From an uncultured Actinomycetota bacterium (GTDB taxonomy: Bacteria; Actinomycetota; Thermoleophilia; RBG-16-64-13): 64,000 bases of DNA. Made by a program: the position numbers and the translations under genes. This document shows positions 12,581 through 37,822 of this stretch, piece by piece; position 1 is the stretch's first letter; each line of letters begins with the position of its first letter. The stretch covers positions 152,435-216,434 of the forward strand of contig CAWAOX010000018.1 in the NCBI GenBank assembly GCA_963783835.1. The letters run 5' to 3'. The notes beneath the pieces were generated by a model, which worked only from the letters and a program-made list of their open reading frames with translations, searched no databases and had not been told where the DNA came from.

Positions 12581-14025
12581 TGCGGGACCCGTGGACTGAC
12601 GACTCACCCCATGATGAATGCGGGGTGTTCGCCATTTACGCCCCGGAGATGGATGTCGCTCGCCTGACCTTCTTCGCTCTCTTCGCTCTGCAGCACCGCG
12701 GGCAGGAGTCGGCCGGCATAGCGGTCACCGACGGTTCTCGCCTGATCGTCCACAAGGACATGGGGCTGGTGTCCCAGGTGTTCGAGGAGTCCATCCTGCA
12801 GACACTTCCTGGGAAGCTGGCCATCGGGCACGTGCGCTACTCGACAACCGGCTCCAGCGAGATGCGGAACGCGCAGCCCTTCGCTCGGACCCGGAACGGC
12901 TCCTTCATCGCCCTGGCTCATAACGGTAACTTGGTCAACACCGATGAACTGCGCGCCGGCCTCGTGGAGAGCGGGCATATCTTCGAGAGCACCTCCGACA
13001 CCGAGGTCATCGCGGCCCTGCTCGCCGAGCACCCCTCCCGGGATGTCCGGGGCGCGTTGCGCGACATCATCCCCCGGTTGCGCGGCGCGTTCAGCGCGGT
13101 GCTGCTCACCAGCGACGCGGTGATCGGCTTCCGCGACCCCTACGGCGTCCGTCCCCTGGTGCTGGGCAAGGTCGAGGAGCGCTACTGCCTGGCGAGCGAA
13201 TCTTCGGGCTTGGACATCATCGGCGCCCAGTTGATCCGCGAGATCGAGCCGGGGGAGATCTGCTGGATCGATGAGCAGGGCTACCACATCGAGCAGGTGG
13301 TCGACCGCAAGCGGGAAGCGCTCTGCGTGTTCGAATTCATCTACTTCGCGCGTCCGGATTCCGTGATGAAAGGCCAGACGCTGTATACCGCCCGCAGCCG
13401 GATGGGCGAAGAGCTGGCGAGCGAATCACCGGTGGAGGCCGATCTGGTGATCCCCGTCCCCGACACGGGGAACTCCGCCGCCATCGGCTACGCGGCGGGG
13501 AGCGGCATCATCTACGGCGAAGCCCTGATCAAGAACCGCTACATCGGACGGACGTTCATCAACCCCGAGGACCGGGTGCGCAAGCTCGGCATCCGCATGA
13601 AGTTCAACCCCATGAGTTCGGCCATCCGGGGCAAGCGTCTGGTGGTCGTCGACGACTCCATCGTGCGCGGCAACACCACCCGGGCACTGGTGCGGGTGCT
13701 CTTCGAGGCTGGGGCAAAGGAAGTCCATCTGCGGATAAGCTCGCCCCCCATCGTCTTTCCCTGCTTCTATGGCATCGATATGGCCGACCAGGACGAGTTC
13801 ATCGCGTTCGGGAAGAGCGTGGACGAGATCAGCGAGGAGCTGGGTGCGACCTCCGTGGCCTACCTGTCGCTCGACGGACTGATGCGGGCGACCCGAGCCG
13901 GTGAGGCGGCCGATTGCTTCTGCGCCGCCTGCTTCACCGGGGACTACCCGTGCGACGTGCCCGAGAAGCTCCGTCAATCGAAGTTCCGCTACGAAGAGAG
14001 CGCCTGCGGCGCGCTGGAGGGCTAG
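12577..14025 (+). CDS. purF: Amidophosphoribosyltransferase
   Basis: N-terminal nucleophile Cys (HDECGVFAIY). PRTase motif VVVDDSIVRGNTT. C-terminal Cys cluster CFCAACFTGDYPC. Confidence 0.92.
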   Translation: MMRDPWTDDSPHDECGVFAIYAPEMDVARLTFFALFALQHRGQESAGIAVTDGSRLIVHKDMGLVSQVFEESILQTLPGKLAIGHVRYSTTGSSEMRNAQPFARTRNGSFIALAHNGNLVNTDELRAGLVESGHIFESTSDTEVIAALLAEHPSRDVRGALRDIIPRLRGAFSAVLLTSDAVIGFRDPYGVRPLVLGKVEERYCLASESSGLDIIGAQLIREIEPGEICWIDEQGYHIEQVVDRKREALCVFEFIYFARPDSVMKGQTLYTARSRMGEELASESPVEADLVIPVPDTGNSAAIGYAAGSGIIYGEALIKNRYIGRTFINPEDRVRKLGIRMKFNPMSSAIRGKRLVVVDDSIVRGNTTRALVRVLFEAGAKEVHLRISSPPIVFPCFYGIDMADQDEFIAFGKSVDEISEELGATSVAYLSLDGLMRATRAGEAADCFCAACFTGDYPCDVPEKLRQSKFRYEESACGALEG

Positions 14026-14037
14026 GCGCCTCCGGTT

Positions 14038-14052
14038 CGCTCGCTGCGAGCG
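14038..14052. terminator. Short GC hairpin between convergent purF and cytochrome genes
   Basis: cgctcg-ctg-cgagcg in the 34-bp gap between two convergent stop codons. No T-run. Confidence 0.3.
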
Positions 14053-14059
14053 CTGTCCC

Positions 14060-15244
14060 TCAGTCGTCCGACGGCGGGCGGCCTCCGTGGCACGTGCACG
14101 ATTGAGTGGCGAAGCCACTCGGATGGCACTTGACGCAGGCAAAGCTCCTGGCGCTGTGCTCTCCGGCCGGCGGGTGCCGGAAGTCCGCGGGCTTCCACCC
14201 TTTGGGAGTATGGCAGTCCGCACAGTCGGTAAGGCCGTCATGCTTGTCCCCGTGGCAGGAGACGCAGGCGGGGTCCGCCGCGGGAAACTGAGTCCCGGCG
14301 ACGGTCGCCGCTCCCGGTTCGCTAACGTGGCAGTCGGCGCAGGATAGGCTTGCATGGGCGCCGACTCTGGGAAACGGATGCTCGAAATCGACATCTTTCC
14401 ACGCGGTGGGCATGTGGCAGCCCGCGCAGTCCGCCAAGCCCCCGTGCTTGTCCTCATGACACGACGCACACTCCGGGCCGGCCTGAGCGAGCTGGGTGCC
14501 CGCCATGTTCTGCACCCCCGGTTTGCTCACGTGGCAATCGGTGCAGGATAGGCCGGCGTGGGCGCCGGTCAGCGCGAAGGGATGACCGCTTGCCGCCGAG
14601 CTCCAACCGGTCATGGTGTGGCAGCTGCTGCATTCGCCCCTGGCCTCGTGCGGAGCCGCATGGCAGTACGAGCAGTTGTTGGGAGCGATGGTCCCGTCGT
14701 GGCACTCGAAACATGAGGACATCTTCGCCGGATCCACATACTCGGGGGGATTGACCGTCGTGTGGACGAAACGCACATGGCAACTGATGCAGTCGATATC
14801 GGAGTGCTTTTCGTGGGAGAACGTGACGGTCGGCAGGGTCGGGTCCGGAGGCGGGTCCTCGTGGCAGCGCAGGCAGCTCTCATCGGGGATCTCCCGGGTC
14901 ACAGCGAGCGGGGCGTCTGGATCGCCGGCGACGTGCACGTAGATCTCGCGGAACGAGCCTAGCTTCGTCTCGATATAGGGAATGGCGCCCGGAGGGATGT
15001 GGCAGTCGCGGCACTCAGCGCTGCTGTGTGTTGAGGCCTGCCAGCTCTCGTAGTACGGATCCATCTCGTGGCAGGTGTCGCAGAAGGAGCTGGCGCTGGT
15101 GTAGTGCGCGGTGACGAGCGCGGCGATGATGAGAACGACGATGACGGCCCCCGTGATGGAGAGGGCCATTACCCAGCGGCGACGCCTCTTGTGGCGCTTG
15201 ACGGCCGGCTGGGTGGGACCTTTGGTCCGCTCGTCTTCGTCCAC
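14060..15244 (-). CDS. Membrane-anchored multiheme (14 x CxxCH) c-type cytochrome, NapC/NirT-like N-terminus plus c7-type triheme repeats
   Basis: One N-terminal TM helix (MALSITGAVIVVLIIAALV) followed by 14 CxxCH motifs (CDTCH, CRDCH, CLRCH, CISCH, CFECH, CSYCH, CSSCH, CTDCH, CASCH, CAGCH, CADCH, CVSCH, CADCH, CVKCH). The ORF extends to 15376. The GTG at 15244 has a GGAGAGGG RBS. Confidence 0.8.
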   Translation of the reverse strand: MDEDERTKGPTQPAVKRHKRRRRWVMALSITGAVIVVLIIAALVTAHYTSASSFCDTCHEMDPYYESWQASTHSSAECRDCHIPPGAIPYIETKLGSFREIYVHVAGDPDAPLAVTREIPDESCLRCHEDPPPDPTLPTVTFSHEKHSDIDCISCHVRFVHTTVNPPEYVDPAKMSSCFECHDGTIAPNNCSYCHAAPHEARGECSSCHTMTGWSSAASGHPFALTGAHAGLSCTDCHVSKPGVQNMAGTQLAQAGPECASCHEDKHGGLADCAGCHMPTAWKDVDFEHPFPRVGAHASLSCADCHVSEPGAATVAGTQFPAADPACVSCHGDKHDGLTDCADCHTPKGWKPADFRHPPAGEHSARSFACVKCHPSGFATQSCTCHGGRPPSDD

Positions 15245-15323
15245 AACCGCCCTCTCCGAAAGGTCGCAAGGAGAAACCCCTCTCCAGCACAGTAGTAGAC
15301 GGGGTGCGGCAACGCAAGTGGCC

Positions 15324-16628
15324 TCAGCCGGGCGGAGCGGCGCTGAGCGACTCGACCGCCCCGCGGACATCCGCAAAACGGCCCGCGCCCGCGGCGAAAA
15401 GCTGCTCCACGAGTTCTGTCGCGCGGCCCTCGCTCAGATCCCGCTGTCCGATGGGGGGCGAATCGGCCACCAGCACTTCCTTGCCCGCCCGGGCGGCCGC
15501 GAGGGCGACAGTTAGGGGCTCGAGATTCCCCGGGCCGAAGAAGATCGGGGCGACGAAGACCACATCGGCCTCGTCAAGGTGCGTCTTCAATTGCTGGACC
15601 GCTTCGGTCGGGAAGGCCTGGAACGGCGGGGCGGCTATCACCTCGAGCTCATACCGCTGGGCGGTGGCGTAGTCGGTATCGAACACGCTGACGATGCCGA
15701 CCGTCGGCGAGAACCCGTGCAGGACGAGTTCCTCGATCAGCTCCGAGGCCGCGCCGCCACCGGCGATCACGTGCACTCGTTTCTCGCCCGCGCCTCCGGC
15801 GCCCCCCGTGGCTCCGCCTTCCGAGGCGCGCGACCACAGAGGAGTGAGGTATGGTCGCCTGCCCTGACGGTGGACCGCCACCCTCACCCTGAAGACCTCC
15901 AAGATCAGCCGGGGATCGAGGATCTCTTCCGGTGCTCCCCGTGCCGCGATATGCCCGGTGTCAAGCAGGAGGAGCTGGTCGCAATACTGGGCCGCCATGT
16001 TGAGGTCGTGCAGCACGACCACGATGGTCTTGCCCGCGGCGTGGAGCTGTCCCAGCAACTGCATGACCTCGAGCTGGTGGTTCAGGTCGAGGTTGTTGAG
16101 GGGCTCGTCGAGCAGCAGGACCGGGGTCTCCTGGGCCAGGGTCTGGGCGATCAGAGCCCGCTGCCGCTCGCCTCCAGAGAGTTGGGTGACCAGCCGACCT
16201 GCTAGCCCGGTCATCCCCGTCGCCTCGAGCGCGGAGGCCACAGCCATCTGCTCGGCCTCGGTGCCGCCCCCCGCGCCTCGCCGCCCGAGCGGGTGCGCGT
16301 AGCGCCCCATGGCGACCATCTCTTCAACGGTAAAGCTAAAGTCGAGGGTGAACTGCTGGGGGACGACCCCGACGAGGCGGGCCACCTCGGTCGCCCTGTA
16401 GCCGGAGAGCGGCCGATCCTGGAGCAGGACGTTCCCGGCGTGCGGGTGGATGGCGCCGGTGAGCACCCGAAGCAGAGTGGTCTTCCCCGACCCGTTGGGC
16501 CCGAGGATCCCGAGGAAGGCGCCGGTAGGGACATCGAGGTCGAGCGGGCCGAGCACGAGGCGGGCGCCGTAGCTGACCTGGAGTCCCGTCAGGCGATAGA
16601 CGCTGCGCATCTCCGTCGAGCCGGCCAT
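15324..16628 (-). CDS. ABC transporter ATP-binding protein (BtuD/FecE type) fused to a ~180-aa C-terminal Rossmann-like domain
   Basis: Walker A GPNGSGKTTL, signature LSGGERQRA, Walker B LLLDEP. After residue ~260 there is a Gly-rich linker, then VHVIAGGGAASELIEEL...VVFVAPIFFGPGNLEPL. The ATG at 16628 lies 1 nt after the permease stop. Confidence 0.8.
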   Translation of the reverse strand: MAGSTEMRSVYRLTGLQVSYGARLVLGPLDLDVPTGAFLGILGPNGSGKTTLLRVLTGAIHPHAGNVLLQDRPLSGYRATEVARLVGVVPQQFTLDFSFTVEEMVAMGRYAHPLGRRGAGGGTEAEQMAVASALEATGMTGLAGRLVTQLSGGERQRALIAQTLAQETPVLLLDEPLNNLDLNHQLEVMQLLGQLHAAGKTIVVVLHDLNMAAQYCDQLLLLDTGHIAARGAPEEILDPRLILEVFRVRVAVHRQGRRPYLTPLWSRASEGGATGGAGGAGEKRVHVIAGGGAASELIEELVLHGFSPTVGIVSVFDTDYATAQRYELEVIAAPPFQAFPTEAVQQLKTHLDEADVVFVAPIFFGPGNLEPLTVALAAARAGKEVLVADSPPIGQRDLSEGRATELVEQLFAAGAGRFADVRGAVESLSAAPPG

Positions 16629-16629
16629 C

Positions 16630-17670
16630 CTACACGCCCTTTCGGGAACGCAGAAGATAGAGGAAGAACGGGCCCCCGACGGCCGCGGTGATGATGCCGA
16701 CGGGGATCTCCGCGGGAGCCAGCGCCGTCCGGGCCACCGTATCGGCGGCAAGCAGCAGCAGGGCCCCGAACACGGCCGACGCCGGCAGCAGTCTGCGGTG
16801 GTCCGGTCCCACCAGGATGCGCATGATATGGGGCACCATCAGACCGATGAAGCCTATGAGCCCGGCGAAGGCGACAGCGGCCGCGGTGGTGAGCGACGCG
16901 GCGATCATCAGGTTGCGGCGGGTGCGCTGCCCGTCGACCCCCAGTTCCCTCGCGCGCTCCTCGCCCATCAGCAACAGGTTCAGCCTTCGCGACATGAACA
17001 TCATGTAGGTGAAGCCGACGGCTACGACCGGTAGGACGATGTACACCTTGTTCCAGGTAGCGGTGGTGAGGCCCCCCATGAGCCACACGACCACCGTATG
17101 CAGGTCGCTCTCGGTGGCCACCATGAGGAACGAGATGATCGCGGTCAGGGTCGATCCCACGGCGACGCCCGATAGGAGCAGGGACGCGCCCGCGGTCTTT
17201 CCGGAGAAGGTGGCCAGGCGGTAGACAAGGAAGGCCGCGGCCGTGGCGCCGACGAAGGCGAGCAGGGGGAGGCCGTAGATGCCAAAGCTCGCCAAGGGTC
17301 TGAAGACGATGGCGATCGTCGCGCCCAAGCCCGCGCCGGCAGACACGCCAAGCAGGTAGGGCTCGGCCAGCGGGTTGCGGAAGACCCCCTGGAACGAGGC
17401 CCCGGCCGTGGACAGGGCCACTCCTACGAGGAGGGCGAGTACGATCCGGGGTAGCCGGAGACTGAGGAGCAGACGGGGCGCCCAGTCGGGATAGTCGCCG
17501 GTCGCATCGCCGCCGCTGACCAGGAGGCCTCCAAGAGCTCGGAGAACCTCGCCCACCGACAGCCCGGCCGCCCCGACCATCGTCGAGACGAGGACGACCA
17601 CGACCAGCGCGGCCACCAGGGCCATCATGACCAGACGGTAGGTCCTGCGGCGATCGGCGCCGGCTATCAC
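16630..17670 (-). CDS. FecCD/BtuC-family ABC permease
   Basis: About 9-10 hydrophobic segments typical of the FecCD family. GTG at 17670 is preceded by AGGAGGA. The ORF extends to 17826 in the track. Confidence 0.8.
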   Translation of the reverse strand: MIAGADRRRTYRLVMMALVAALVVVVLVSTMVGAAGLSVGEVLRALGGLLVSGGDATGDYPDWAPRLLLSLRLPRIVLALLVGVALSTAGASFQGVFRNPLAEPYLLGVSAGAGLGATIAIVFRPLASFGIYGLPLLAFVGATAAAFLVYRLATFSGKTAGASLLLSGVAVGSTLTAIISFLMVATESDLHTVVVWLMGGLTTATWNKVYIVLPVVAVGFTYMMFMSRRLNLLLMGEERARELGVDGQRTRRNLMIAASLTTAAAVAFAGLIGFIGLMVPHIMRILVGPDHRRLLPASAVFGALLLLAADTVARTALAPAEIPVGIITAAVGGPFFLYLLRSRKGV

Positions 17671-17782
17671 GCGCGATTCCTCCTGTCTAGACCTGGGCGC
17701 GGCGGGCGCTTCGCGGCCCGCCGCGCCGTCCGGCGCCGGCTCCCGGCCGGGGAGCCGGCGCCAGACGGTCGCGATGCTCGGG

Positions 17783-18889
17783 CTAGAAGGCCTCCGGGTG
17801 AATGGCCTTGGCCAGCGTCTCGACACCCACGCCTATGCGGGGTCCCGGCTGGGTGACCACTACATCGTCGATGAGGGAGACCGCCCCCTCCTTGACCGCG
17901 GTCAGATTGGCGAAGCGGGGATCGGACGTGAACTCCTCGACACTCTTGTAGGTGCTGCTCGGAAGCAGGATCACGTCCGGATCGGCCGCTACGAGCTGCT
18001 CGGGCGTGAACTGGAAGTAGGCCTGTCCGGCAGCCGGCGAACCCGCCATGGACCCGACGTTGGTCGCGCCCACGAGCTTGAGCAGCTCATCGACAAACGA
18101 GCCGGAGCCGGCGGTCCAGAGGGTGTTGTCGAGCGCATAGAAGACCTTCGGCGAGTAATCGAGCTTTGAAGTGACGTCGGTCACGGCTTTGATCTGGGCC
18201 TTGATCGAGTCCACCACTTCGGTTGCTTTGCCGGTCGCGCCCGTTGCCGCGCCCACCGTGGTGATGTTCGCGTAGATCTGCTCGAGGGTCATGGGGTTGA
18301 GGATCAGTACCGGCGCTCCCGCCTTCTGCACGGGGGCCAGGGCTTCCTCGTTGCCCGAATAGCCGACCACCAGGTCGGGGCTGAGGGCCATGATGGCCTC
18401 GGTGTTCGCCTGGAAGTCGCCGATCTTGGCTATGCTCGCCGCCTCCGGGGGCTCACCGGGCAGGGACGTCGTGCCGACCACCCTGTCGCCCACGCCGAGC
18501 GCGAAGAGCGTCCAGGTATTGGCCGGAGCGGTGGAGACGATGCTCATAGGCTTGGCTTCGACGGTCACGCTGTTGCCGTTGTCGTCGGTGACCGTGACCG
18601 GGAAAGTCCCCTCGGCCGGTTGAGCGACGGTCGAGGCGGTCGTCTCTGTCGGAGCAGCGGTAGTCGAGGTCTCAGCGGGAGCCGCTGTGGAGGCGGTCGT
18701 GGCGGGTGAGGCCGTCGTCTCGGTCGACGCTGTGTCCGACCCGCACCCGGCCACAAGCAGGGCGCTGCTGAGAAGCAGCACCAAGGCGACGAGCAACGCG
18801 AGTGGGACGAAGGGGAGATGGGTGCGCCGCCGCGAGGGTGGCAGATCTGGCCCCGCCGTGGAACGGCGTGGCCTGGGATGTCCGGTCAT
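17783..18889 (-). CDS. Periplasmic substrate-binding lipoprotein, BtuF/TroA-like (cobalamin/siderophore class)
   Basis: Signal peptide with lipobox LLVAGC, then a T/A/S-rich linker, then a class III SBP fold. ATG at 18889 lies 5 nt after AAAGGAG. A cobalamin riboswitch sits upstream. Confidence 0.8.
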   Translation of the reverse strand: MTGHPRPRRSTAGPDLPPSRRRTHLPFVPLALLVALVLLLSSALLVAGCGSDTASTETTASPATTASTAAPAETSTTAAPTETTASTVAQPAEGTFPVTVTDDNGNSVTVEAKPMSIVSTAPANTWTLFALGVGDRVVGTTSLPGEPPEAASIAKIGDFQANTEAIMALSPDLVVGYSGNEEALAPVQKAGAPVLILNPMTLEQIYANITTVGAATGATGKATEVVDSIKAQIKAVTDVTSKLDYSPKVFYALDNTLWTAGSGSFVDELLKLVGATNVGSMAGSPAAGQAYFQFTPEQLVAADPDVILLPSSTYKSVEEFTSDPRFANLTAVKEGAVSLIDDVVVTQPGPRIGVGVETLAKAIHPEAF

Positions 18890-19044
18890 GCGGACTCCTT
18901 TCGGTTCGACATATGGTCAAGGCCCGCAAGATGGTGGAGAGCAGGTTGGCTACTCCCCGGCCTGACCAGGTAGCGGTCGAACCGAGTTGGCGCCCCGACG
19001 ACATCGGGGCGGAGTCGCTCTCTCCACGGAAAGCGTCTGCTCCT

Positions 19045-19215
19045 CCTCCGTAGCAGGTATCTGGCTCCCGAGAACCCGCCGCCCGCCCGGCGCCGCCTTT
19101 CGGCGGGCCTTCGCTGGCGAACAGGACCTCGGTTACAGTGGCGGGACCGCGCCGGCTTCTCACCGGCTTCCCTCTCGGCCTCGGCGAACCGAGGCCTGAC
19201 TGCGGAGGCACCATG
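19045..19215 (-). promoter_or_regulatory. Cobalamin (B12) riboswitch in the 5' leader of the btuF-like operon
   Basis: The minus strand reads ...gagGGAAgccGGTGagAAgCCggcgcgGtCCCGCcaCTGTAAccgagg...cagcGAAGGccc...gggaGCCAGatACCTGCt, which matches the conserved cobalamin-riboswitch core and B12-box. It is followed by a GC hairpin, then the RBS and ATG of the SBP gene. Confidence 0.8.
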
Positions 19216-19310
19216 CTTGCAGAGCGGACTCTAGCATTTCGATGTCTGTGCGTCCATGCCGGGACGGCGGGCGCCGGGCGGCTCGGTGCCGCTTTTGGTA
19301 CGCTGGTCCG

Positions 19311-19622
19311 GTGAGAAGCTCGGTCAGCATAGTGTTGTTCTTCCTCTTGAGCGGTTTCTTTCTCGCCGCTCTAATGGGGGCCATCGAGCGGAACCGCAGG
19401 CTTATCGGGATCGCCGGGGCCTGCCTGGTAGTCCTGGTGTGCATCATCGTGTTCGTCAAGCCGGTCCAGTTGCCGTCGCTCTCGGATCTACGGCACGGCA
19501 CGACGACGACTACAGCGACGACCGCCGGGCCGAGCAGCGCGGCTCCGGCTGCGGCGGCGACTCCGGCCGCGACACCGGCGACGTCGGGCACGAGTTCCAC
19601 CGCCGCTCCCTCGGGGTACTGA
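19311..19622 (+). CDS. Possible small two-TM membrane protein with Thr/Ala-rich tail (start uncertain)
   Basis: The ORF has hydrophobic segments [19 protein letters not shown] and [18 protein letters not shown], then the tail [29 protein letters not shown]. No convincing RBS. Confidence 0.25.
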
Positions 19623-19635
19623 GCGGAGGTGGCGC

Positions 19636-20719
19636 TTGTTCGATAAACCCGACAACGTCTTCCCCATCCACGCCGAGCACTCGGTGGACATGAGCTACCG
19701 GCAGGCCGGGGTGGACATCGAGGCGGGGGAGGAGGCCGTCCGCCTGATCAAGGCCGACGCCGAGAGCACCTACATCCCCGGAGTGCTTGGTTCCATCGGG
19801 GGCTTCGCCGGGATGTTCCAGCTTCCCAGCGGCCTGCAGGAGCCCGTGCTGGTGACGTCCACCGACGGCGTCGGCACCAAGCTGCTGCTCGCGCAGGAGA
19901 CCGGCCGTCTCGACACCATCGGCATCGACCTGGTGGCGATGTCGGTAAACGACGTCCTCACGGTCGGGGCCCGTCCCATCCTCTTCCTCGACTACGTCGC
20001 CGTCGGCCGGCTGCTGCCCGCCGAGATGGCGCGTATCGTGGCCGGCGTGGCCGAAGGCTGCCGCCAGGCGGGGTGCGCGCTCGTCGGCGGGGAGATGGCC
20101 GAGATGCCCGGGCTCTACTCTCCGGGGGAATTCGATGTGGCCGGTTTCTGCGTCGGTCTGGCGGAGCGGAGCAAGCTGATCGACGGCTCCACCGTCCAGG
20201 AGGGCGACGCGGTCCTGGGCCTCGCTTCCAGCGGCTTCCATTCCAACGGCTACTCGCTGGTCCGGAAAGTGCTCGAGGTCAACGACCTGCAACCGGGAGA
20301 CCGCTTCCCCGCACATGACGGAGACGATCGCCGACAGCCTCCTGCAGCCCACGCGCATCTACGTCCGCAGCGTGCTGCGGCTGCTCGACGGAGGTGTTCC
20401 GGTCAGGGCGATGGCGCACATAACCGGGGGCGGCATGATCGGGAACCTATCCCGGGTCATCCCCGACGGCCTTTCTGCCCGCCTCCACTTCAGTCATTGG
20501 AAGATCCCGCCGATGTTCAGGGCTATCCAGCATCTGGGCGACATCGCCGACGAGGAGATGTTCGCCACTTTCAACATGGGCGTCGGCTACGTTCTGATCG
20601 TCCCCGAGACTTCGTCGTCGGGCGCCCGGGACTTATTGACTCAGGGGGGCGAAGAGGTGATCGAGTTGGGCGAGATAGCCACCGGTCCGGCCAAGGTGAC
20701 GCTGGGAGGTCTGCTGTGA
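19636..20719 (+). CDS. purM: AIR synthetase; apparent frameshift near 20300-20317
   Basis: The N-terminal frame gives [21 protein letters not shown]...DYVAVGRL. The frame changes at ccccgcacatg. The C-terminal frame gives [20 protein letters not shown]...[11 protein letters not shown]...[10 protein letters not shown] (ORF 20315..20719). The 627-aa track ORF is an artefact that merges purM 5' with purN. Confidence 0.85.
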
Positions 20720-21519
20720 CGGCGGGGCCTGACAGCGACGGCGCGGGCGTCGGCGGAGCGGCCGCCGCGGCGCCGGGGGAAGAGCCGATCTTCCGCATCG
20801 CCGTCCTGGCGTCGGGGAGCGGCTCCAACCTTCAGGCGATAATCGATCGAGTGCACCGCTCGCGGTTCGAGGTGTTCGACACCGGTGAGGACGTGGCGTA
20901 TGGCGACGAGGTGGCCCGACGCCAGGACGAGCAGCCGGCCGGTGACGCGCCGGTCGGGCCGGCCGAGGCTGGAGAGCCCGGCTTGCCGCGGATCGAGATC
21001 ATCCTCGTCATCAGCGACATAGCCGGAGCCCGAGCCATCGAGCGCGCGGAGCGGGCAGGCATCCGCACCGCGGTCATCCCGGTGCGCGACTTCAAGGATC
21101 GGGACGAGCACGACCTTGCCCTCGTCACCAGGCTCTGCGAAGCGGAGCCCGACTTGGTGGTGCTCGCCGGATACATGCGCATCGTGTCGCCCGCGGTGCT
21201 CAAGGCCTTCCCCTGGCGGGTGATAAACCTGCATCCCGCGCTTCTGCCGGCCTTTCCGGGGACGCACTCCATCAGCGACGCGGTCCGCTACGGGGTCAAG
21301 GTGACAGGGGTGACGGTCCATTTCGTCGACCCGGGTGTCGACACCGGCCCCGTGATCGCGCAGGAGGCGGTGCGGGTGGAGGACGGGGACACCCCGGAGA
21401 CTCTGGCGGCGCGCATCCACGAGGTGGAGCACCGGTTGCTCCCGGCGACCATCCGTCTCATCGCGGCGGGGCGGGTGAAGCCGCCGCTTCCGGGAAGCCG
21501 GGTAGTGCAGGTAGACTGA
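20716..21519 (+). CDS. purN: GAR formyltransferase
   Basis: GTG start in a GTGA overlap with the purM stop. [17 protein letters not shown]...AGYMRIVS...[13 protein letters not shown] (PurN motifs). A ~50-aa acidic insertion follows the first beta-strand. Confidence 0.85.
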
Positions 21520-26600: not shown

Positions 26601-26673
26601 GGGCCGTTAGCTCAGTTGGTAGAGCACCGGACTTTTAATCCGATGGTCGATGGTTCGAGTCCATCACGGCTCA
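26601..26673 (+). tRNA. tRNA-Lys (anticodon UUU), no encoded CCA
   Basis: Cloverleaf: acceptor gggccgt/acggctc (one G-U), D-arm gctc-agttggta-gagc, anticodon loop cTTTTaa, T-arm gatgg-ttcgagt-ccatc. A C27:A43 mismatch at the top of the anticodon stem. Confidence 0.85.
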
Positions 26674-26678
26674 TTAGG

Positions 26679-26706
26679 AAAGCCCCGCATTTGCGGGGCT
26701 TTTTCT
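26679..26706 (+). terminator. Intrinsic terminator after tRNA-Lys
   Basis: aaagccccgcatttgcggggcttttt (GC stem plus T-run) immediately 3' of the tRNA. Confidence 0.8.
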
Positions 26707-26954
26707 TGCGTCTTGAGGGACCGCTGCAGGCCGCGACGGGGGCCGGGACGCGCGCAGAATGTACACGGAATGCTGTGCGGTCCCGGTAGATATTTGACAC
26801 TGTGGCTCCGGTAGGTGTGTTCCACTTCGGGACGCGGCTCCGGTACCTGGGCGACAGTGGCTCCGGTACCTATGTGACACTTCGAGAGGACTTTGCCTCC
26901 CGGCTCCACACCAGATAGCAGGAGAAATCCGGCTATCTGGGGAGGGCAGACACC

Positions 26955-27567
26955 GTGCTTGTGGAGCTGGGACTGGTGGAACAACGGCACAAAGCCGTGC
27001 TCGAAGTGCTGGCGGGAGCCACGATCAGCGACGTGGCCATGAGGAACGGGGTCACCCGGCAGACGGTCCATCGCTGGCTGAGACGCTATGCCCGGTCGGG
27101 CTCGCCGGTCTCGTCGATCACTCCTCACGCCCGGCCAGGTGCCCGCACCAGATGGCCCCGGAGATCGAGGCCCGCGTCCTCGAACTTCGGGAGGCCCATC
27201 CCGGCTGGGGCCCGCGCACCCTGCGCCATCAGCTCGATCGCGAAGGTGTGGTCCCTCTTCCCGGGCGCTCCTCCATCTATCGCCTCTTGGTCCGTCACGG
27301 CCTGGTGGATCCTCAGAAGCGAAGACGCAAGCGGGAGGACTATAGCCGCTGGGAACGCAGCCGCTCCATGGAACTCTGGCAGATGGACATCATGGGCGGG
27401 GTGAAGCTGAAGGCGGGGCCGAACTCAAGATGATCACCGGACTCGACGACCACTCCCGCTTCTGCGTCTCCGCGCTCCTTGTGCCTCGGGCCACGGCCCG
27501 CCCGGTCTGTGAAGCTCTGGCGCTGGCCATGCGCCGCCACGGCGTCCCCGACCAGATCCTCACGGCG
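26955..27567 (+). pseudogene. IS481-family transposase, N-terminal 2/3 (HTH + start of DDE core), two frameshifts, truncated by the IS110 insertion after ...GVPDQILT
   Basis: Three frames: HTH ...TISDVAMRNGVTRQTVHRWLRRYARSG; MAPEIEARVLELREAHPGWGPRTLRHQL...ELWQMDIMGG; ITGLDDHSRFCVSALLVPRATARPVCEAL...GVPDQILT. Confidence 0.7.
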
Positions 27568-29140
27568 TGCTATGAGAGTTTTGTCAATTCCCCGTCTTGG
27601 GCTATCGGGCCGTTGGGCGTCCAATCGAGTGGAACATTCGGGATGGTCCGCGTGCGGACTTCCCATCGTGCTCGTCGGACTTCTTGCCCGAGGGAGCGAG
27701 GGTGGCCAAGCGGTCGCGACGAGCTGACATCACTCGATATCGCCCACGACAACGGACGACCTCTTCCTCTCTCCGGTATTAGCCGAAGCCCTCGGGAAAC
27801 TGCCAAGCGACGAGAGCGACTCCTTTCCACGCATGCTCCGCGTCAAAGGTCTCTCGCCGCTTCATAACCGCGAACGCGTAAAGCAGCAGCTTGTTCATGC
27901 AGGCGCCGAAGGCTTACGGTCCCGACCAAGGGCCGGTCTGGCCGCTGGATGAGCCGGTCGAAGTGGGCCCGGATCCGAGGGTTGTGCTGCAGACGGGACA
28001 GGGTGGCCATATAGAGGACCTGGCGCAGCCCCGACCGACCTCGGTGGGTCATGCCCTGTTTTCGACCGATCCGCTGCCCGGTGTCATGCCGGGAAGGATC
28101 GGTGCCCGCGAGCTTGATGAGCTGTCTGCCGTGGCGATACTTGTCGATCGAGCCCACATGGGCAAGGATGCCAGCGGCAGACGACCAAGCGAGGCCGGGG
28201 ATGCTGAGCAGATAGCGACTTTCCTCCACAACTGCAAGCACCTTCTGGATCTCATGGGCGAGCGCGTCAATCTGATCGCTCAGGAGATCGACGCGCCCAA
28301 CCAGACGAGCAAGTTCCCGGACCAGAGGGCCCAGAGCAGCCGCGGGGACCACCGTGCGCTGCGCCCTTTCATGAACAGCCATGAGCTTGAACCGCCAGAG
28401 CCGGCGACCCCGACTGGCGGCTTTTACCTGCGAATGAAGTCATTCACGGGAAGAGCCGCAATCTCCTGGGGAGTGAGGCCGAGCCTAAGGACAGCCACAC
28501 ACCCTGGGGCGAGAAGATCCGTCCAGACCGAACGCAGCTCCGGGGAAGACCCCATAGAGCTGATGGCTAAGCAGCGTCTTTAAGCGGGCCCGCTCCTCAC
28601 GCAGGCGGGCATATTCGCCCAGGATCGACGGAGTGGATCAGGGGCCAGCTTCCACCTTGGTTTCGGTGACCAGGTCGTTGCGCACAAGTTCGGCTATCTG
28701 TTCGGCGTCAGAAATATCGGTCTTGTGCCGGTTCATCTGCCGAGCTTCGCGCAGGCGGAAGGTGGCGAGAGGATTCACGATGACGTACTCCTCGCCGCGG
28801 GCTTCCAGATAGTGGGCCAGAGCCTCCCACACGTGTCCGGTTGCCTCAAAGGCAAATACACGCCGGCCTGCTGACTGTGAGGCAAGCAGTCGGGTTCGCA
28901 TCAGAAGATCGTCGAATCCGACGAGCGAGTGGGGAACCCGAAACCGAGTGAGCCGCTCTCCCTCCATCCGGCAGATAACTGCCTGGTGCTGCTCTCCCGC
29001 CAGGTCAAGCCCCACGATGATATCCTCGGGCTCAAGGCGTAGTCTCCGGGCCATGATGGTTACCTCCTTTGGTTTGGCGCCTAAGGAATAACCCATGACG
29101 GAGATTCACACCTACTCTTATTCTTCCATAGTTCCATACT
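27564..29140 (-). mobile_element. IS110-family insertion sequence nested inside the IS481 transposase gene (boundaries inferred from the interrupted ILT|DNG codons)
   Basis: The IS481 ORF reads ...QILT up to 27563 and resumes ...ILDNGHEF at 29136. The intervening 1.58 kb encodes an IS110-type DEDD transposase on the minus strand, with an 86-bp 5' and a 279-bp 3' non-coding region. Confidence 0.65.
27843..29054 (-). pseudogene. IS110-family (DEDD) transposase, N- and C-terminal domains in different frames (frameshift(s) between 28383 and 28637)
   Basis: N-domain IVGLDLAGEQHQAV...AFEATGHVWEAL...VNPLATFRLREARQMNRHKTDISDAEQIAELVR (DEDD_Tnp_IS110), ORF 28638..29096. C-domain LLSIPGLAWSSAAGILAHVGSIDKYRHGRQLIKLAGTDPSRHDTG (Transposase_20), ORF 27843..28382. 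AGGAGG RBS 8 nt before the ATG at 29054. Confidence 0.7.
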
Positions 29141-29423
29141 CGACAACGGCCACGAGTTCCAGGCCAAGTTCCACTGGCACGTCGAGGACCAGGGCATGCG
29201 CCATACCTACATCAAGCCAAGAAGCCCGAACTTAAACGGCAAAGTGGAGCGTTCCCACCTCACTGACGAACTCGAGTTCTACCAACTCCTTGAGTACACC
29301 GACGACGTCGATCTCGCGGAGAAGCTCGCGGTCTGGGAGGAGTTCTACAACGTCCATCGGCCGCACGCTGCTCATGACGGGCGGACACCCTATGAGGTCC
29401 TCAGAGAGAAGTTGGTATCGTGA
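29136..29423 (+). pseudogene. IS481-family transposase C-terminal piece (end of rve core)
   Basis: ILDNGHEFQAKFHWHVEDQGMRHTYIKPRSPNLNGKVERSHLTDELEFYQLL...LAVWEEFYNVHRPHAAHDGRTPYEVL. Confidence 0.7.
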
Positions 29424-29514
29424 AAGTGTCAACCGAGGTCGTACAGGTCACAGTCAGAGCTCAGAACTCCTGCAGCAACCGGTTGTCTGACGCATATCCT
29501 GACCGCCGTCCGGA

Positions 29515-30186
29515 CTAGTCAAGCAAGTAGGCAATAGCTCGCGCAGGTGCTCCATCACCGGCCGTAATGCGAAGCGGAAGACAAACGAAGTAAATCCTCT
29601 TGCCCCCCAGTTGCTTGGCTACGGAACTGATTTCCTCGATGAGGGGAATGCCATTGCCGAGCAGAATATTGTGCGCCGGGTTCGACGTATCTCCGTATTT
29701 ATCGATGCTGAAGAAGTCTATGCCCACGGATTTCACTTTCTTCGCCACTAGCCATTCCGCACCGCTCCGATCGACGTATGTGTAGTTCGAATTGAGCCAC
29801 GCCTCTCCAAGATGGTCGGCGCAGCCGGTGTAGAGGATGACAATATCTCCTGGTCTCACCAACTCAGAGAACTTCTCCAGATCCTCGGCGCCAACAGCGG
29901 ACCCAAGCTCCTTGTCCGAAAGATCGAGGACAACTGCCTCCCCCATGAAGAGGTTCAGGTCCAATTCTTCGAGCGATAAACCTTCATTGAAGCGATGCCG
30001 CGGCGCATCGACATGCGTCCCCTGGTGCGTAGAAATCTTGAATCTGTGAACGTTAAATCCATTCTTTTCCACAGATGAGACCTGTTCAATCACCGCCGGC
30101 GCGTTGGCAGGATAGAAGGGCATCCCCTCCCATACTGGGTTGGACAGGTCATAGTATTTGCCTTTGAACGGGGCCGTCGCAGCCAT
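29515..30186 (-). CDS. Cyclase-family protein (kynurenine formamidase / isatin hydrolase type, PF04199-like), paralog A1
   Basis: HQGTHVDAPRHRF metal-binding motif, and a C-terminal HNILLGNGIPLIEE block identical to the paralog at 42133..42852. Noticeably lower GC than the pur region. Confidence 0.75.
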   Translation of the reverse strand: MAATAPFKGKYYDLSNPVWEGMPFYPANAPAVIEQVSSVEKNGFNVHRFKISTHQGTHVDAPRHRFNEGLSLEELDLNLFMGEAVVLDLSDKELGSAVGAEDLEKFSELVRPGDIVILYTGCADHLGEAWLNSNYTYVDRSGAEWLVAKKVKSVGIDFFSIDKYGDTSNPAHNILLGNGIPLIEEISSVAKQLGGKRIYFVCLPLRITAGDGAPARAIAYLLD

Positions 30187-30299
30187 TCTGGACTCCTTTG
30201 GTCTTGTCCTGCTATTCGTTAAGAACGCGGCGGTACGAATTCTCGTGCGAGTTACACTCTAGTTGCTGAGGACTAAGTCGGCGGAGCGGAACCCGCCCC

Positions 30300-31532
30300 T
30301 TACACCCTCGCGATAGTTTGTGGAGTCTTGTGGAGCCTCTCAGCTCCCTGATCGCCTACGATGTATCCATCGCATACGTTGGTCCAGACTCCCTCCCGCA
30401 CAGCGCCGGGGTGCACGGCTATGTTCATACCTCTCTCCAGCTTCCACGCCTCTTCGGGCCTGATGTTCGGCCGCTCGACAAGCGAAAGCCCTTGCCCATG
30501 GGAAAATGAGCGACCTGGCCTTCCGTAACCGCGCTCGGTTAGGAATTGAACCTGCTTCAGCCAGAGTTCTCCGGGTTCGGCACCCGGAACCATGGCCTTG
30601 GCGATGAGGTGCTGACACTCGAGCGCGTCGGCAAAAGCCTTCTCTAGGGAGGGAGAGGGCTCGCCCTGAACCGCGAAGATCTTGGTGATCTCGGTGTAAT
30701 AGCCGCAAGGTCCGTTTACTTCGACGAGCACTGAGACCTGATCCCCGGGCCGGATCACTCGGTTCTGCATACCGTAGACATCGAAAGGCACGATCGTACC
30801 CATCGGTCCCGAGCCCACCTGGATGATGCCTCGGGCACTACCGTGCTTGGAGCAGTAGTAGTGAGCCTCGGCGTACACATCGTAGTCGTGCATACCGGGC
30901 GTGATCGTCTTAGTAAGATGCTCGATACCGCATCCTCGAGCGCTGCGCAGCCCTTTATGCACTCGATCTCTTCGGGACTCTTGACGATCTTCAGCCGATC
31001 GACCAGTCGGTCGCATCGACGAACACCGCACCCGGTAGGTCTCGACCACGTACTCATAGAAGGTCACCGGAAGGAAGGTTTTCTCTACCCAGCCGATCTT
31101 AGGGTTCTTCTTTTCTCTGAGCACGCTGACAGCCAGTCTACCTTCCACTGTGCTCGAATAATGCGTGGTTGGGAAGTAGACGGCTCCCAGGGAGGCACCG
31201 ACGCCGCGTGCTAGTGCCATGGGCGGGAAAGGCTGGGTGGCGGGCGGCTCCATCCCGCAGTTGATCACCGCCATCTCACCCTCGAGCGGGAAGATCACGG
31301 TCATTGGATATTGATGGCGTGCCGCGAAGTCAGTGAACCAACGAAGAGTTCCTCCTAGAAACTCCTCGTGGTTTTGCATTACCAGATAGTCGAGCCCACG
31401 CTCTTGCATCATTTCTCGTGCGGCTTCCCAGCGGCGCTCGAGTTCGGGCGTGGAGATGCGATGGACCAGCCTCTCGACTGGGCTCACTGGGGTAGGATCA
31501 ACCACGGTCCTCTCCTTTCCTGACGAATGCAA
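30300..31532 (-). CDS. M24-family metallopeptidase (creatinase / Xaa-Pro dipeptidase-like); two compensating frameshifts near 30930-31040
   Basis: Pita-bread motifs ITPGMHDYDVYAEAHYYCSKHGSARG...GSGPMG...FSHGQGLSLVERP. The segment DRLVDRLKIVKSPEEIECIKGCAALED (typical M24) lies in a different frame (ORF 30755..31057). Confidence 0.7.
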   Translation of the reverse strand: MHSSGKERTVVDPTPVSPVERLVHRISTPELERRWEAAREMMQERGLDYLVMQNHEEFLGGTLRWFTDFAARHQYPMTVIFPLEGEMAVINCGMEPPATQPFPPMALARGVGASLGAVYFPTTHYSSTVEGRLAVSVLREKKNPKIGWVEKTFLPVTFYEYVVETYRVRCSSMRPTGRSAEDRQESRRDRVHKGLRSARGCGIEHLTKTITPGMHDYDVYAEAHYYCSKHGSARGIIQVGSGPMGTIVPFDVYGMQNRVIRPGDQVSVLVEVNGPCGYYTEITKIFAVQGEPSPSLEKAFADALECQHLIAKAMVPGAEPGELWLKQVQFLTERGYGRPGRSFSHGQGLSLVERPNIRPEEAWKLERGMNIAVHPGAVREGVWTNVCDGYIVGDQGAERLHKTPQTIARV

Positions 31533-31719
31533 CGCTCACATGCTTCTTGCCGCGTTCGGCTTCTGACCAATACGGGACGGCGGCCGTCCACCCCACTCGG
31601 CCGGATGTAAGGGGGATTCAGCTACTGGCTAGAATCTACCGGTGCCGCGGCCAGCCTTGTCTCTGAGAGTTGGAGCAGGGTGGTATGAAATGCGTCCAGG
31701 ACCGATGGCAATCAGTGCA

Positions 31720-32521: not shown

Positions 32522-32804
32522 ATCGTGCTCCCTCCATAGATGACCAAAATGTTCATTGATACCCGAAAAATGTGCCATTAGATTCTTTTATTGAGCTGCT
32601 TTGCACGGCTCGTGTCTCAACGGTACCAGGCCCATCGGCCGCAGACCACTCATTTTCGAAACCTGGGTGCTCTGCCAGTGGGAAGTGACTCTCTGCACAA
32701 GGAGAGTGCTTGAGTTCATATTTGTAACACGTTGACCGCATCGTGAAATCGTATTATGATGGGTCGGTCAAGAAAGTGGATGTTCGACGACGAGGGTGAT
32801 GGGA

Positions 32805-36774: not shown

Positions 36775-36817
36775 TCCGTGGACAAACCGATATGTGAAGG
36801 ACCGAAGGGGGTCATGC

Positions 36818-37672: not shown

Positions 37673-37822
37673 GCGTGGCATCGGGTGAGCGAAGTGGGGT
37701 TGGGGGAATGAGCAAGACGAGGGAAGGGAGAACAAGGGTGAGTCCCGGTCAGATGCGAAGCTGTCAATACGCCAGGAGTTTCCCGTGCCTGGCTATCGAC
37801 GAACGGGTGCCCTGAGAGGAGA

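Follow-up and report, generated by a model that had tools for sequence, protein, structure and literature searches.

A cobalamin riboswitch-controlled btuFCD operon and a neighboring multiheme cytochrome gene, probably transcribed separately, in an uncultured actinobacterium

The region lies between purF and purM in the window, i.e., the whole 64-kb stretch of DNA that was analyzed, and consists of two head-to-tail gene groups with all features on the minus strand (Table 1). One group comprises a cobalamin riboswitch followed by btuF, btuC, and btuD, and the other is a gene for a multiheme cytochrome c. The comparison set consisted of 16 related loci from uncultured Actinomycetota, all of one clade, which are designated below by L numbers.

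Table 1. Features of the region between the riboswitch promoter and the end of the cytochrome gene
Feature	Positions	Strand	Basis
Putative promoter of the riboswitch-btuFCD transcript	19228..19256	-	Direct sequence reading and comparison of loci
Cobalamin riboswitch aptamer	19035..19219	-	RF00174 match
Riboswitch expression platform/leader with conserved hairpins	18890..19034	-	Folding and leader conservation
btuF, 368 aa	17783..18889	-	Peripla_BP_2
Two GC-rich hairpins after btuF	17696..17766	-	Folding versus shuffles
btuC, 346 aa	16630..17670	-	FecCD
btuD, 434 aa	15324..16628	-	ABC_tran
btuD-cytochrome gap, 79 nt	15245..15323	-	Sequence
Putative cytochrome promoter	15289..15317	-	Motif conserved among relatives
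Membrane-anchored multiheme cytochrome c, 394 aa	14060..15244	-	Cytochrom_NNT and Cytochrome_C7

The RF00174 model matched the aptamer over its full length (model positions 1 to 189 of 189) with 63.0 bits and an E value of 3.3e-13, the gathering score being 31.5. The first-pass annotation had placed a cobalamin riboswitch ahead of the binding protein, permease, and ATPase genes, and the scan bears this out and carries the element to position 19219. An orthologous riboswitch is found 5' of btuF in 13 of 13 btuF-bearing relatives scanned. A candidate promoter lies ~9 nt ahead of the first riboswitch nucleotide, with a -35 element TGGACG (19256 to 19251), a 17-nt spacer, and a -10 element TAGAGT (19233 to 19228). 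A TG-n-TA(G/A/C)AGT -10 element with a TGGAC-like -35 element occupies the same position in L001, L003, L004, L005, L019, and L035, with diverged spacers, and we infer that this putative promoter drives the riboswitch-btuFCD transcript. The leader is nearly invariant across six loci whose BtuF proteins are only 42 to 91% identical, and the whole leader fold has a z score of -5.1. Since the terminator scan found no U-tract terminator or terminator-like site in this leader, control by the riboswitch is probably exerted at the level of translation. A CTCTCC element in the leader shows complementarity to GGAG, the ribosome-binding site of btuF, and when B12 is plentiful, the riboswitch would most likely shut off btuF by sequestering that site.

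The btuF product is a lipoprotein substrate-binding protein (Peripla_BP_2, 96 bits) with an LVAG|C lipobox and a linker rich in Thr, Ala, Ser, and Pro. Its NCBIfam matches, all below the equivalog cut-offs, include BtuF (NF002894, 65.5 bits), and the heme-binding IsdE model scored 65.4 bits. The btuC gene begins with GTG, has AGGAGG upstream, and encodes a permease (FecCD, 329.8 bits) whose best NCBIfam match is the vitamin B12 permease BtuC (NF007081, 335.9 bits, short of the cut-off of 461). The btuD start is 1 nt past the btuC stop, and its product is an ATPase (ABC_tran, 108.9 bits) with a C-terminal extension of ~150 aa. Among NCBIfam models, this protein best fits NF007082, a corrinoid ABC transporter ATPase (307.6 bits over residues 12 to 362, short of the cut-off of 537); a heme ABC ATPase model also matched, with 249 bits, and in L082 the orthologue carries the tag PF27219, "MJ0874." The Pfam and NCBIfam matches confirm the BtuFCD-like importer recognized earlier. 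The btuFCD genes are a B12 uptake operon under riboswitch control, and their products would form a corrinoid ABC importer of type II. The operon resembles RF00174-controlled btuFCD importers in having a full-length aptamer 5' of binding protein, permease, and ATPase genes and in a permease and an ATPase that fit corrinoid-specific models best. It comes nearest to the extended BtuD type found in Halobacterium (NF007081 and NF007082), as the haloarchaeal BtuD model covers the C-terminal extension of the window ATPase up to residue 362. Differences from known btuFCD systems are the scores under the equivalog cut-offs, the length of the lipoprotein linker, the strong hairpins behind btuF, and the absence of a U-tract terminator from the riboswitch leader.

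These hairpins (17766 to 17728 and 17727 to 17696) stand directly behind the btuF stop codon. A 126-nt segment with these hairpins folds with a minimum free energy of -82.5 kcal/mol (z score, -5.0), and 0 of 200 shuffles fold as well. Equivalent long stems with different sequences are present in L001, L003, L004, L008, L011 to L013, L019, and L035. The hairpins are probably an intra-operon attenuator or an mRNA stabilizer and would probably further lower expression of the genes downstream.

The GTG start of the cytochrome gene is supported by a conserved N terminus, M-x-E-D-E-R, and by a GGAGAGGG ribosome-binding site. The protein contains exactly 14 CXXCH motifs and one CXCH motif, the terminal CTCH at residues 383 to 386. 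Cytochrom_NNT (PF03264) matched residues 24 to 164 with 65.7 bits, Cytochrome_C7 matched five stretches with 62.4 bits, and the NrfH structure 2j7a matched residues 26 to 131 (E value, 1.4e-11), while the NrfH model TIGR03153 gave 71.8 bits, under its equivalog cut-off of 134.2. The head is an NrfH/NapC-type tetraheme domain with CDTCHEM at residue 55, and ten further CXXCH motifs lie in c7-type repeats, the repeat unit of ~70 residues with three CXXCH motifs being present in three copies. An alignment of 22 family members showed the CXXCHXM motif at residue 55, M61, and K94 to be invariant. Motif counts, Pfam matches, and 2j7a together uphold the original description of a membrane-anchored, 14-heme NapC/NirT-type cytochrome with c7 repeats. 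Among the best 50 of 1,650 homologues, heme counts run from 10 to 21 and are mostly 12, 14, or 17; repeat copy number varies among orthologues to give 11, 14, or 17 hemes, and these counts are consistent with a wire whose length varies. The AlphaFold model, with a pLDDT of 47.5, could not be used; the hydrophobic N-terminal helix is modeled as H17-51. No nrfA or other catalytic partner was found near the cytochrome gene, and neither a reductase partner nor an acceptor was identified.

The first-pass annotation saw no obvious terminator between the btuD stop and the cytochrome gene, and prediction agrees, with the gap corrected from 80 to 79 nt. The terminator scan found no terminator-like site on the minus strand of the gap, which folds no better than shuffled sequence (z score, -0.48), and no terminator-like structure was found between the two genes in relatives of the adjacent type. 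The gap is filled by a promoter-like motif that starts 6 nt past the stop codon of btuD and would give a 5' untranslated region of ~38 nt, with a -35 element TTGCGT (15317 to 15312), a 17-nt spacer, and a -10 element TACTGT (15294 to 15289). The pattern TTGCNN-N16-18-TANNNT has only three matches on both strands of the 64-kb window, of which this is one, and it precedes the cytochrome gene of the window and of 13 of the 16 relatives, regardless of what stands farther upstream. It is carried by 12 of 14 aligned upstream regions, in most of them 33 to 51 nt before the cytochrome start, and L002 and L083 have it as well. Per 160 nt, 0.0066 matches are expected; of the 27 matches in 658 kb, 12 fall upstream of the cytochrome gene. 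These occurrences are not fully independent because the relatives form one clade. The hexamers are kept and the spacers have diverged, the same signature as that of the riboswitch promoter. A strict sigma-70 scan of positions 13800 to 19700 reported no promoter, and it is blank at the gap motif because each hexamer has only three of six consensus positions. Thus, where a promoter within 15245 to 15323 had been named in advance as evidence against cotranscription, comparison of loci yields a conserved motif and a putative promoter. Within the gap, the cytochrome gene would have a promoter of its own, of the housekeeping-sigma type, that drives its transcription. In L082 and L035, the gap is ~10 nt and at most 30 nt, respectively, and the TTGC of the -35 element is absent or altered; these short gaps resemble those within operons and may reflect the ancestral arrangement.

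The recurrence of btu-cytochrome synteny, proposed earlier as a check, was found in only 5 of 16 relatives (L001, L003, L010, L035, and L082), the remainder being interrupted or lacking btuFCD. An opposite-strand operon lies between btuD and the cytochrome gene in 9 or 10 of the 16, and cotranscription is therefore impossible there. The intervening genes are cobT-C-U-S in L005, L006, L007, and L019, with a cobalamin riboswitch of their own in the first three, and the heme-attachment genes ccmE-F-A-B-C, divergent from the cytochrome gene, in L004, L008, L011, L012, and L013; in L083, ccmE occupies that place. The L002 locus lacks btuFCD and the riboswitch and keeps two cytochrome genes with the promoter motif. 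Cytochrome homologues with 44 to 48% identity (L009, L014, and L081) have neither btu nor pur genes in their vicinity. Because the adjacent arrangement is scattered across the purF tree, in which L082 and L035 are the deepest branches, the btuD-cytochrome junction has been rearranged repeatedly.

Given its own conserved putative promoter, the cytochrome gene is most likely a neighbor by inherited gene order that stands outside the B12-regulated unit. We assign a probability of about 0.75 to two functionally separate head-to-tail transcription units, with the cytochrome uncoupled from B12; the B12-gene neighborhood is most likely an inherited gene order in one clade, at an often-rearranged spot. 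The first-pass annotation had instead let the operon continue into the cytochrome gene, possibly under B12 co-regulation. In a single operon of this kind, riboswitch, btuF, btuC, btuD, and cytochrome would be transcribed mainly from the riboswitch promoter, and B12 would repress the cytochrome together with corrinoid uptake. The shared strand, the gap free of terminator-like sites, the adjacency in five relatives, and the short gaps of L082 and L035 are consistent with such an operon, which could be ancestral since those two loci are the deepest branches. However, it is unlikely in view of the motif immediately ahead of the cytochrome gene, shared by the window and 13 relatives, the intervening opposite-strand operons, the 44 to 48% homologues, and the cytochromes retained in L002 without btuFCD or riboswitch; in addition, the post-btuF hairpins and a leader suited to translational control would weaken a B12 signal at the fourth gene. 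As no terminator separates btuD from the cytochrome gene, read-through may well occur to some degree in the window genome, with a possible minor component that is B12 repressible.

A functional coupling would account for the continued proximity of btuFCD, cobTCUS, and the cytochrome gene; for example, the cytochrome might reduce cob(III)alamin or cobinamide outside the cell ahead of uptake, or it might take part in respiration that depends on corrinoids, as in reductive dehalogenation. Across the clade, the cytochrome gene is 0 to 5 kb from riboswitch-controlled B12 genes (btuFCD or cobTCUS), and in L005, L006, and L007 a second B12 riboswitch adjoins the cytochrome promoter region back to back. 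All clade loci nevertheless share the same purM...purF frame and so represent one inherited arrangement, not independent recurrences, and the linkage is lost in the 44 to 48% homologues and in those from Coriobacteriia, Bacillota, and Planctomycetota. A riboswitch affects no transcript but its own, L002 lacks btuFCD, no reductive dehalogenase or other corrinoid enzyme stood beside the cytochrome gene in any locus inspected, and the literature search found no paper linking cobalamin riboswitches to multiheme cytochromes in such a sense. A functional coupling of either form, including the dehalogenation-like respiration that had been suggested, is very improbable. Import of heme or an iron chelate, supplying the heme-rich cytochrome, would make metabolic sense of the linkage of ccm and cytochrome genes, and the equal BtuF and IsdE scores of the binding protein, the heme model match of the ATPase, and the ccm heme-handling genes in the same interval in relatives point that way. 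It is scarcely credible when set against the cobalamin riboswitch 5' of btuF in the window and every btuF-bearing relative scanned, the corrinoid BtuC and BtuD models as best matches, and the corrinoid nucleotide-loop genes cobTCUS adjoining btuD in four relatives. Bacteria make heme in the cytoplasm and export it via Ccm, so heme import is unneeded for cytochrome maturation.

Under the preferred reading of two separate units, the cytochrome is, to judge from its sequence, most likely a menaquinol-oxidizing electron conduit. One transmembrane helix would anchor it with the hemes outside the cytoplasmic membrane, the NrfH/NapC-like tetraheme head would take electrons from menaquinol, and about ten further hemes in c7 modules would relay these electrons outward to a partner cytochrome or an acceptor that is encoded elsewhere. 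In a single-membrane actinobacterium, this would mean extracellular or cell-wall electron transfer. NrfH from Desulfovibrio vulgaris (2j7a/2vr0), a tetraheme menaquinol dehydrogenase of the NapC/NirT family, likewise has an N-terminal membrane helix and then four CXXCH motifs, the first being CXXCHXM, and the invariant lysine; CymA, TorC, and ImcH are functional analogues. The window cytochrome differs from NrfH in scoring under the equivalog cut-off and in having no nrfA nearby, and its head, unlike NrfH and CymA, is fused to ten or eleven more heme sites. NrfH and CymA are stand-alone tetraheme proteins, and TorC adds only one heme domain. A sequence likeness to cytochrome c7 (PpcA) and to poly-c7 "nanowire" cytochromes (such as Geobacter GSU1996) appears in the Cytochrome_C7 matches, with the PpcA structures matching weakly. 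GSU1996 is a soluble periplasmic protein, whereas in the window protein the repeats are joined covalently to a quinol-dehydrogenase head in the membrane. Gram-positive iron reducers have putative quinol-oxidizing multiheme cytochromes with up to 20 hemes, and their multiheme cytochrome genes often cluster with cytochrome c biogenesis genes (PMC7829351; PMC9686372). The cytochromes of Carboxydothermus ferrireducens, Thermincola, and Anaerosomatales share with the window protein the concept of a membrane-bound multiheme protein that, in bacteria with a single membrane, connects extracellular electron transfer to the quinol pool; the window family differs in coming from uncultured soil and sediment Actinomycetota and in occupying a conserved purF-purM interval.

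The importer and the multiheme cytochrome gene that follows it are best explained, at a probability of about 0.75, as two separate units. The first-pass annotation had proposed a single operon, in which a cobalamin riboswitch and btuFCD continue into a 14-heme cytochrome gene. Its description of the individual features was right almost to the base, except that the gap between the btuD stop and the cytochrome GTG is 79 nt (15323..15245), not 80. The riboswitch was borne out by an Rfam covariance-model scan, in which the RF00174 hit covered model positions 1-189 of 189, a full-length aptamer. The BtuFCD-like gene set likewise stood: its genes lie together, and the binding protein (cluster A-II), the permease (FecCD family), and the ABC ATPase all score above the Pfam cutoffs. 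The coordinates of these and other features are collected in the table below.

Features of the cassette, its surroundings, and two related sets of genes in other loci (window positions unless a locus is named)
Feature	Position	Strand	Details
Promoter region before riboswitch (predicted)	19256..19228	minus	TGGACG-17-TAGAGT
Cobalamin riboswitch RF00174	19219..19035	minus	63.0 bits, gathering score 31.5, E 3.3e-13
Riboswitch leader / expression platform	18890..19034	minus	145 nt
btuF	18889..17783	minus	368 aa, Peripla_BP_2 96 bits
Two adjacent very stable GC hairpins between btuF and btuC	17766..17696	minus	z -5.0
btuC	17670..16630	minus	FecCD 329.8 bits
btuD	16628..15324	minus	434 aa, ABC_tran 108.9 bits, C-terminal extension of ~150 aa
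Putative cytochrome promoter	15317..15289	minus	TTGCGT-17-TACTGT, predicted from conservation
Cytochrome gene	GTG 15244 to 14060	minus	394 aa
Terminal CTCH	14099..14110	minus	Cytochrome residues 383-386; CXCH, not CXXCH
purL-purF	ending at 14025	plus	
Small membrane ORF, then purM-purN-purH	from about 19242	plus	
Small ORF	19242..19622	plus	Hydrophobic protein, Thr/Ala-rich tail
Molybdopterin oxidoreductase	46789..49056		
Xanthine-dehydrogenase-type enzyme	53463..55775		
ccm set in L004	L004 5329..9871		Divergent from cytochrome gene
Second cobalamin riboswitch, driving cobT-cobC-cobU-cobS	L005 9629..9812; L006 9490..9684; L007 9658..9782	minus	

The first unit would be an ordinary B12-repressed corrinoid importer. 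The best NCBIfam matches of the permease and the ATPase were haloarchaeal-type corrinoid models, BtuC NF007081 (335.9 bits versus a cutoff of 461) and BtuD NF007082 (307.6 versus 537), and the binding protein matched NF002894 (65.5 versus 234). None of the three reached an equivalog-level match among the NCBIfam models, and the importer is therefore assigned at the family level only. We infer its specificity for corrinoids from the riboswitch, and the genomic context also includes cobTCUS genes adjoining btuD in four relatives. BtuF carries an LVAG/C lipobox followed by a Thr/Ala/Ser/Pro-rich linker. The C-terminal domain of BtuD (residues about 276-434, 15324..15800) had no match in the Pfam copy searched, although the orthologue in the related locus L082 is tagged PF27219 'MJ0874' and the haloarchaeal model NF007082 spans the window protein up to residue 362. 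That domain is kept in all relatives, at 58 to 88% identity in the loci without frameshifts.

Rfam placed the riboswitch 5' of btuF in each of the 13 relatives that carry btuF and were scanned, and the leader separates the aptamer from the btuF ATG on the same strand. The leader is almost invariant in six loci in which BtuF identity ranges from 42 to 91%, so that it is more conserved than the BtuF coding sequence. A terminator scan of 13800..19700 did not find a U-tract terminator in it. A CTCTCC element in the leader has three potential pairing partners, namely the upstream GTGGAGAG, a neighboring GGGGAG, and the GGAG of the btuF ribosome-binding site, and these alternative pairings are conserved between loci. 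The riboswitch thus appears to control initiation of btuF translation, a mode that is common among B12 riboswitches in Actinobacteria. The predicted promoter region before it has equivalents in six relatives, with conserved hexamers and a diverged spacer. The hairpins directly 3' of the btuF stop have stems of 17 bp and roughly 14 bp, and stems of similar size but different sequence follow btuF in most relatives. Their probable role is to attenuate expression within the operon or to stabilize the mRNA, raising the ratio of binding protein to permease. A leader of the translational type, together with these hairpins, would dilute a B12 signal before it reached any fourth gene.

The second unit would be the cytochrome, transcribed separately. 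The first-pass description of a membrane-anchored protein with a NapC-like head, c7-type repeats, and 14 hemes was confirmed: there are exactly 14 CXXCH motifs in addition to the terminal CTCH, Cytochrom_NNT (NapC/NirT, PF03264) scores 65.7 bits against a gathering score of 24.1 over residues 24-164, and Cytochrome_C7 (PF14522) scores 62.4 bits against a cutoff of 24.8 in five stretches. The head resembles NrfH-type menaquinol dehydrogenases, with which it shares a single membrane helix, four CXXCH motifs (residues 55, 78, 124, and 152), a first motif of the CXXCHXM type (CDTCHEM at residue 55), and an invariant lysine; its match to the NrfH structure 2j7a had an E value of 1.4e-11. The N-terminal hydrophobic stretch spans residues 28-50. 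An AlphaFold2 model from a 22-sequence alignment was of low confidence overall (mean pLDDT 47.5, pTM 0.24), with a helix at residues 17-51 at a pLDDT of about 84. C55, C58, H59, E60, M61, and K94 are invariant in that alignment, and K94 is the probable counterpart of the NrfH quinol-site lysine in PDB 2j7a. The protein differs from NrfH proper, scoring 71.8 with TIGR03153 against a cutoff of 134.2, and neither in the window, where btuD and purF adjoin it, nor in the inspected relatives is it flanked by an NrfA-like gene. It is therefore not considered a nitrite reductase subunit.

The tail carries ten further CXXCH motifs in c7-type units, including three-heme repeats at residues 234/259/273 and 302/327/341. 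Orthologues differ by entire repeat units, giving 11, 14, or 17 hemes, and the range is 10 to 21 among the best 50 homologues, a variability that fits a modular electron wire. In the role that we propose, the cytochrome would oxidize menaquinol on the outer side of the membrane and pass the electrons across the wall zone, either to other cytochromes or to acceptors that are soluble or mineral. Similar roles have been proposed for quinol-oxidizing multiheme cytochromes of Gram-positive iron reducers (PMC7829351; PMC9686372). A start at an internal ATG (the M in 'WVMALS') was considered and rejected, since orthologues share both an N terminus of M-x-E-D-E-R and the basic segment ahead of the helix; the GGAGAGGG ribosome-binding site preceding the GTG at 15244 also counts against it. 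At the other end of the protein, a CXCH takes the place of a last CXXCH heme site and is a candidate noncanonical attachment motif. Among the 120 best homologues (P0001-P0120), 49 end in a CXCH, typically as C[ST]CHGG[NK]PP and including the Planctomycetaceae matches P0100-P0102, and in 56 others the homologous position is occupied by the canonical CXXCH. The CXCH may be either a conserved noncanonical site for a 15th heme or a degenerate site retained for other reasons. A search of the open-access literature for a natural CXCH heme c motif returned nothing relevant.

The junction between btuD and the cytochrome gene had been described as free of an obvious terminator, and this held. The scan of 13800..19700 placed no terminator-like site in the gap, whose predicted fold is not more stable than that of shuffled sequence (z -0.48), and folding revealed no hidden terminator in the window or in L001, L003, and L010, three loci with the same junction (z -1.4 to +0.8). 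A strict Escherichia coli-type sigma-70 scan of 13800..19700 predicted no promoters. The scan missed the sites proposed here because each hexamer matches only three of the six consensus positions. We derived a motif instead by aligning, locus by locus, the 160-nt region that precedes the cytochrome start codon. In it, a -35 element of the CTTGCG type and a TANNNT -10 element recur, 16 to 18 nt apart, with an unconserved spacer. The same pattern of conserved hexamers and diverged spacer before the riboswitch calibrates this approach, and in Actinobacteria the promoters read by housekeeping sigma factors typically have TTGCGA-like -35 and TANNNT -10 elements.

The pattern TTGCNN-N16-18-TANNNT was present in 12 of 14 aligned regions against an expectation of 0.0066 per region, and 12 of its 27 matches in 658 kb of loci, counting both strands, were at the cytochrome-upstream position. 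The distance from motif to start codon was 33 to 51 nt, except in L007 (6 nt). In the window the motif begins 6 nt past the btuD stop, and the pattern matches just three times in the whole 64 kb. It also precedes the first cytochrome gene of L002, a locus without btuFCD (TTGCTT-17-TACTGT), and occurs in L083 (TTGCGC-17-TATCGT), and L035 has the variant TTGTCA-18-TAGAGT. The upstream regions of L006 and L082 do not fit, L082 having only a -10-like TATCGT. Altogether the motif is present in 13 of 16 relatives and in the window.

Gene order was compared across related loci. The cytochrome has 1,650 database homologues, and 80 loci were obtained from a scan limited to a single genome of each species; the closely related ones (55 to 77% identity) are all from uncultured Actinomycetota metagenome-assembled genomes. 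These loci were queried by tblastn with the window BtuF, BtuC, BtuD, PurF, PurL, PurM, and PurH, followed by ORF inspection, Pfam confirmation, two more contig look-ups, and Rfam scans. The census comprised 16 related loci with the purM...purF frame or a ccm context. Only five (L001, L003, L010, L035, and L082) have btuD directly before the cytochrome gene as in the window, and 9 to 10 are interrupted by opposite-strand operons. The corrinoid nucleotide-loop genes cobT-cobC-cobU-cobS lie between btuD and the cytochrome gene in L005, L006, L007, and L019. In the first three they are driven by a second, higher-scoring cobalamin riboswitch (89 to 100 bits), which adjoins the cytochrome promoter region and reads away from it; in L019 the Rfam scan found no riboswitch reaching the gathering score. 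In L004, L008, L011, L012, and L013 the opposite-strand genes are ccmE-F-A-B-C, a System I cytochrome c maturation set recognized by the CcmE, CcmF_C, CcmB, and Cytochrom_C_asm domains and divergent from the cytochrome gene. Finding System I is a surprise, as Actinomycetota usually rely on System II. L083 has a divergent ccmE in a different downstream context, with the remainder beyond the contig end, and L002 has neither btuFCD nor a riboswitch, and two tandem cytochrome genes.

The adjacent arrangement is scattered on a purF neighbor-joining tree, which implies that the btuD-cytochrome junction was remodeled several times. In more distant loci (L009, L014, and L081; 44 to 48% identity), tblastn found neither btu nor pur genes nearby, and the cytochrome gene of L081 is solitary among unrelated metabolic genes. 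Near the Coriobacteriia homologues (L015, L018, and L023) lies an ATPase that is CcmA-like, not BtuD-like. Judged from gene neighborhoods, the recurrent functional neighbor of the cytochrome is the ccm maturation operon, not btu. In the window there are no ccm or cobT/C/U/S genes, the sole match coming from the generic resemblance of btuD to CcmA as ABC ATPases, and both sets must lie elsewhere in this genome.

A single B12-controlled btuFCD-cytochrome operon as the main mode of expression is unlikely, even though the genes share a strand, the gap is short, and no terminator-like site intervenes. The analysis predicts a conserved promoter inside the gap, the interval in which the first-pass annotation had said that a promoter would count against its proposal. 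The linkage, which it had suggested looking for in relatives, does recur in 5 of 16 loci, but it is broken in 9 to 10 and btuFCD is absent from one, and the distant homologues are unlinked. The dilution expected from the leader and hairpins argues in the same direction, and the suggested B12 coregulation is not supported. However, because btuD is not followed by a terminator in the window or in other adjacent-type loci, some read-through is likely, and transcripts that escape the riboswitch may run on into the cytochrome gene. An ancestral operon is also conceivable, as the deep-branching L082 and L035 have gaps of about 10 to 30 nt and a poor -35 element, and B12-repressible read-through might be its remnant.

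In such a case the quinol-oxidizing conduit would have a B12-repressible component of expression in addition to its own promoter. More speculatively, the clade may maintain a tetrapyrrole-cofactor island made up of btuFCD, cobTCUS, ccm (heme export), and the cytochrome gene, and the cytochrome could then have a corrinoid-related redox function such as reducing external cobalamin. Taken as a whole, this reading is quite improbable. That corrinoids and the cytochrome are truly linked in function is very unlikely. A literature search pairing a cobalamin riboswitch with a multiheme cytochrome returned nothing relevant. Riboswitch-btuFCD units and NapC/NirT-type multiheme cytochromes are both of already known kinds, and their juxtaposition is a clade-specific gene order.

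If the two did form one operon, a respiratory electron conduit would be gated by the supply of B12, an unusual regulatory link. With the comparative evidence to the contrary, the locus mainly cautions that same-strand, short-gap adjacency does not amount to an operon in GC-rich actinobacteria. The analysis also suggests a recognizable promoter type for this uncultured clade. The comparison documents a large, uncharacterized family of NrfH-headed cytochromes with 10 to 21 hemes from uncultured soil and sediment Actinomycetota; in single-membrane bacteria these proteins could plausibly conduct electrons from quinol to the outside.

The cassette lies on the strand opposite to the flanking pur genes, and the cytochrome gene, the last on its strand, converges on purF. 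A recent mobile island between purF and purM was rejected, as the GC content equals that of the flanks, mobility genes are absent, and the arrangement is clade-wide. The small ORF directly upstream of purM is divergent from the riboswitch promoter, and its DNA is conserved in L002. The purM frame is lost at about 20310..20320 (plus strand), where a net 14 nt are deleted by comparison with the L002 orthologue, which is intact, so that the ORF list shows a chimeric 627-aa ORF (19636..21519) and a C-terminal piece (20315..20719). Genes are split over multiple frames in several relatives too, which suggests long-read indel errors, not a pseudogene. Farther along, the GC content drops from ~0.67 to ~0.58 over 26601..44000, directly after a tRNA gene (26601..26673). 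No integrase was seen among the genes sampled there, which are metabolic (a cyclase, an M24 peptidase, a hydantoinase, and a Peripla_BP_6 binding protein), and the stretch may be an acquired metabolic island.
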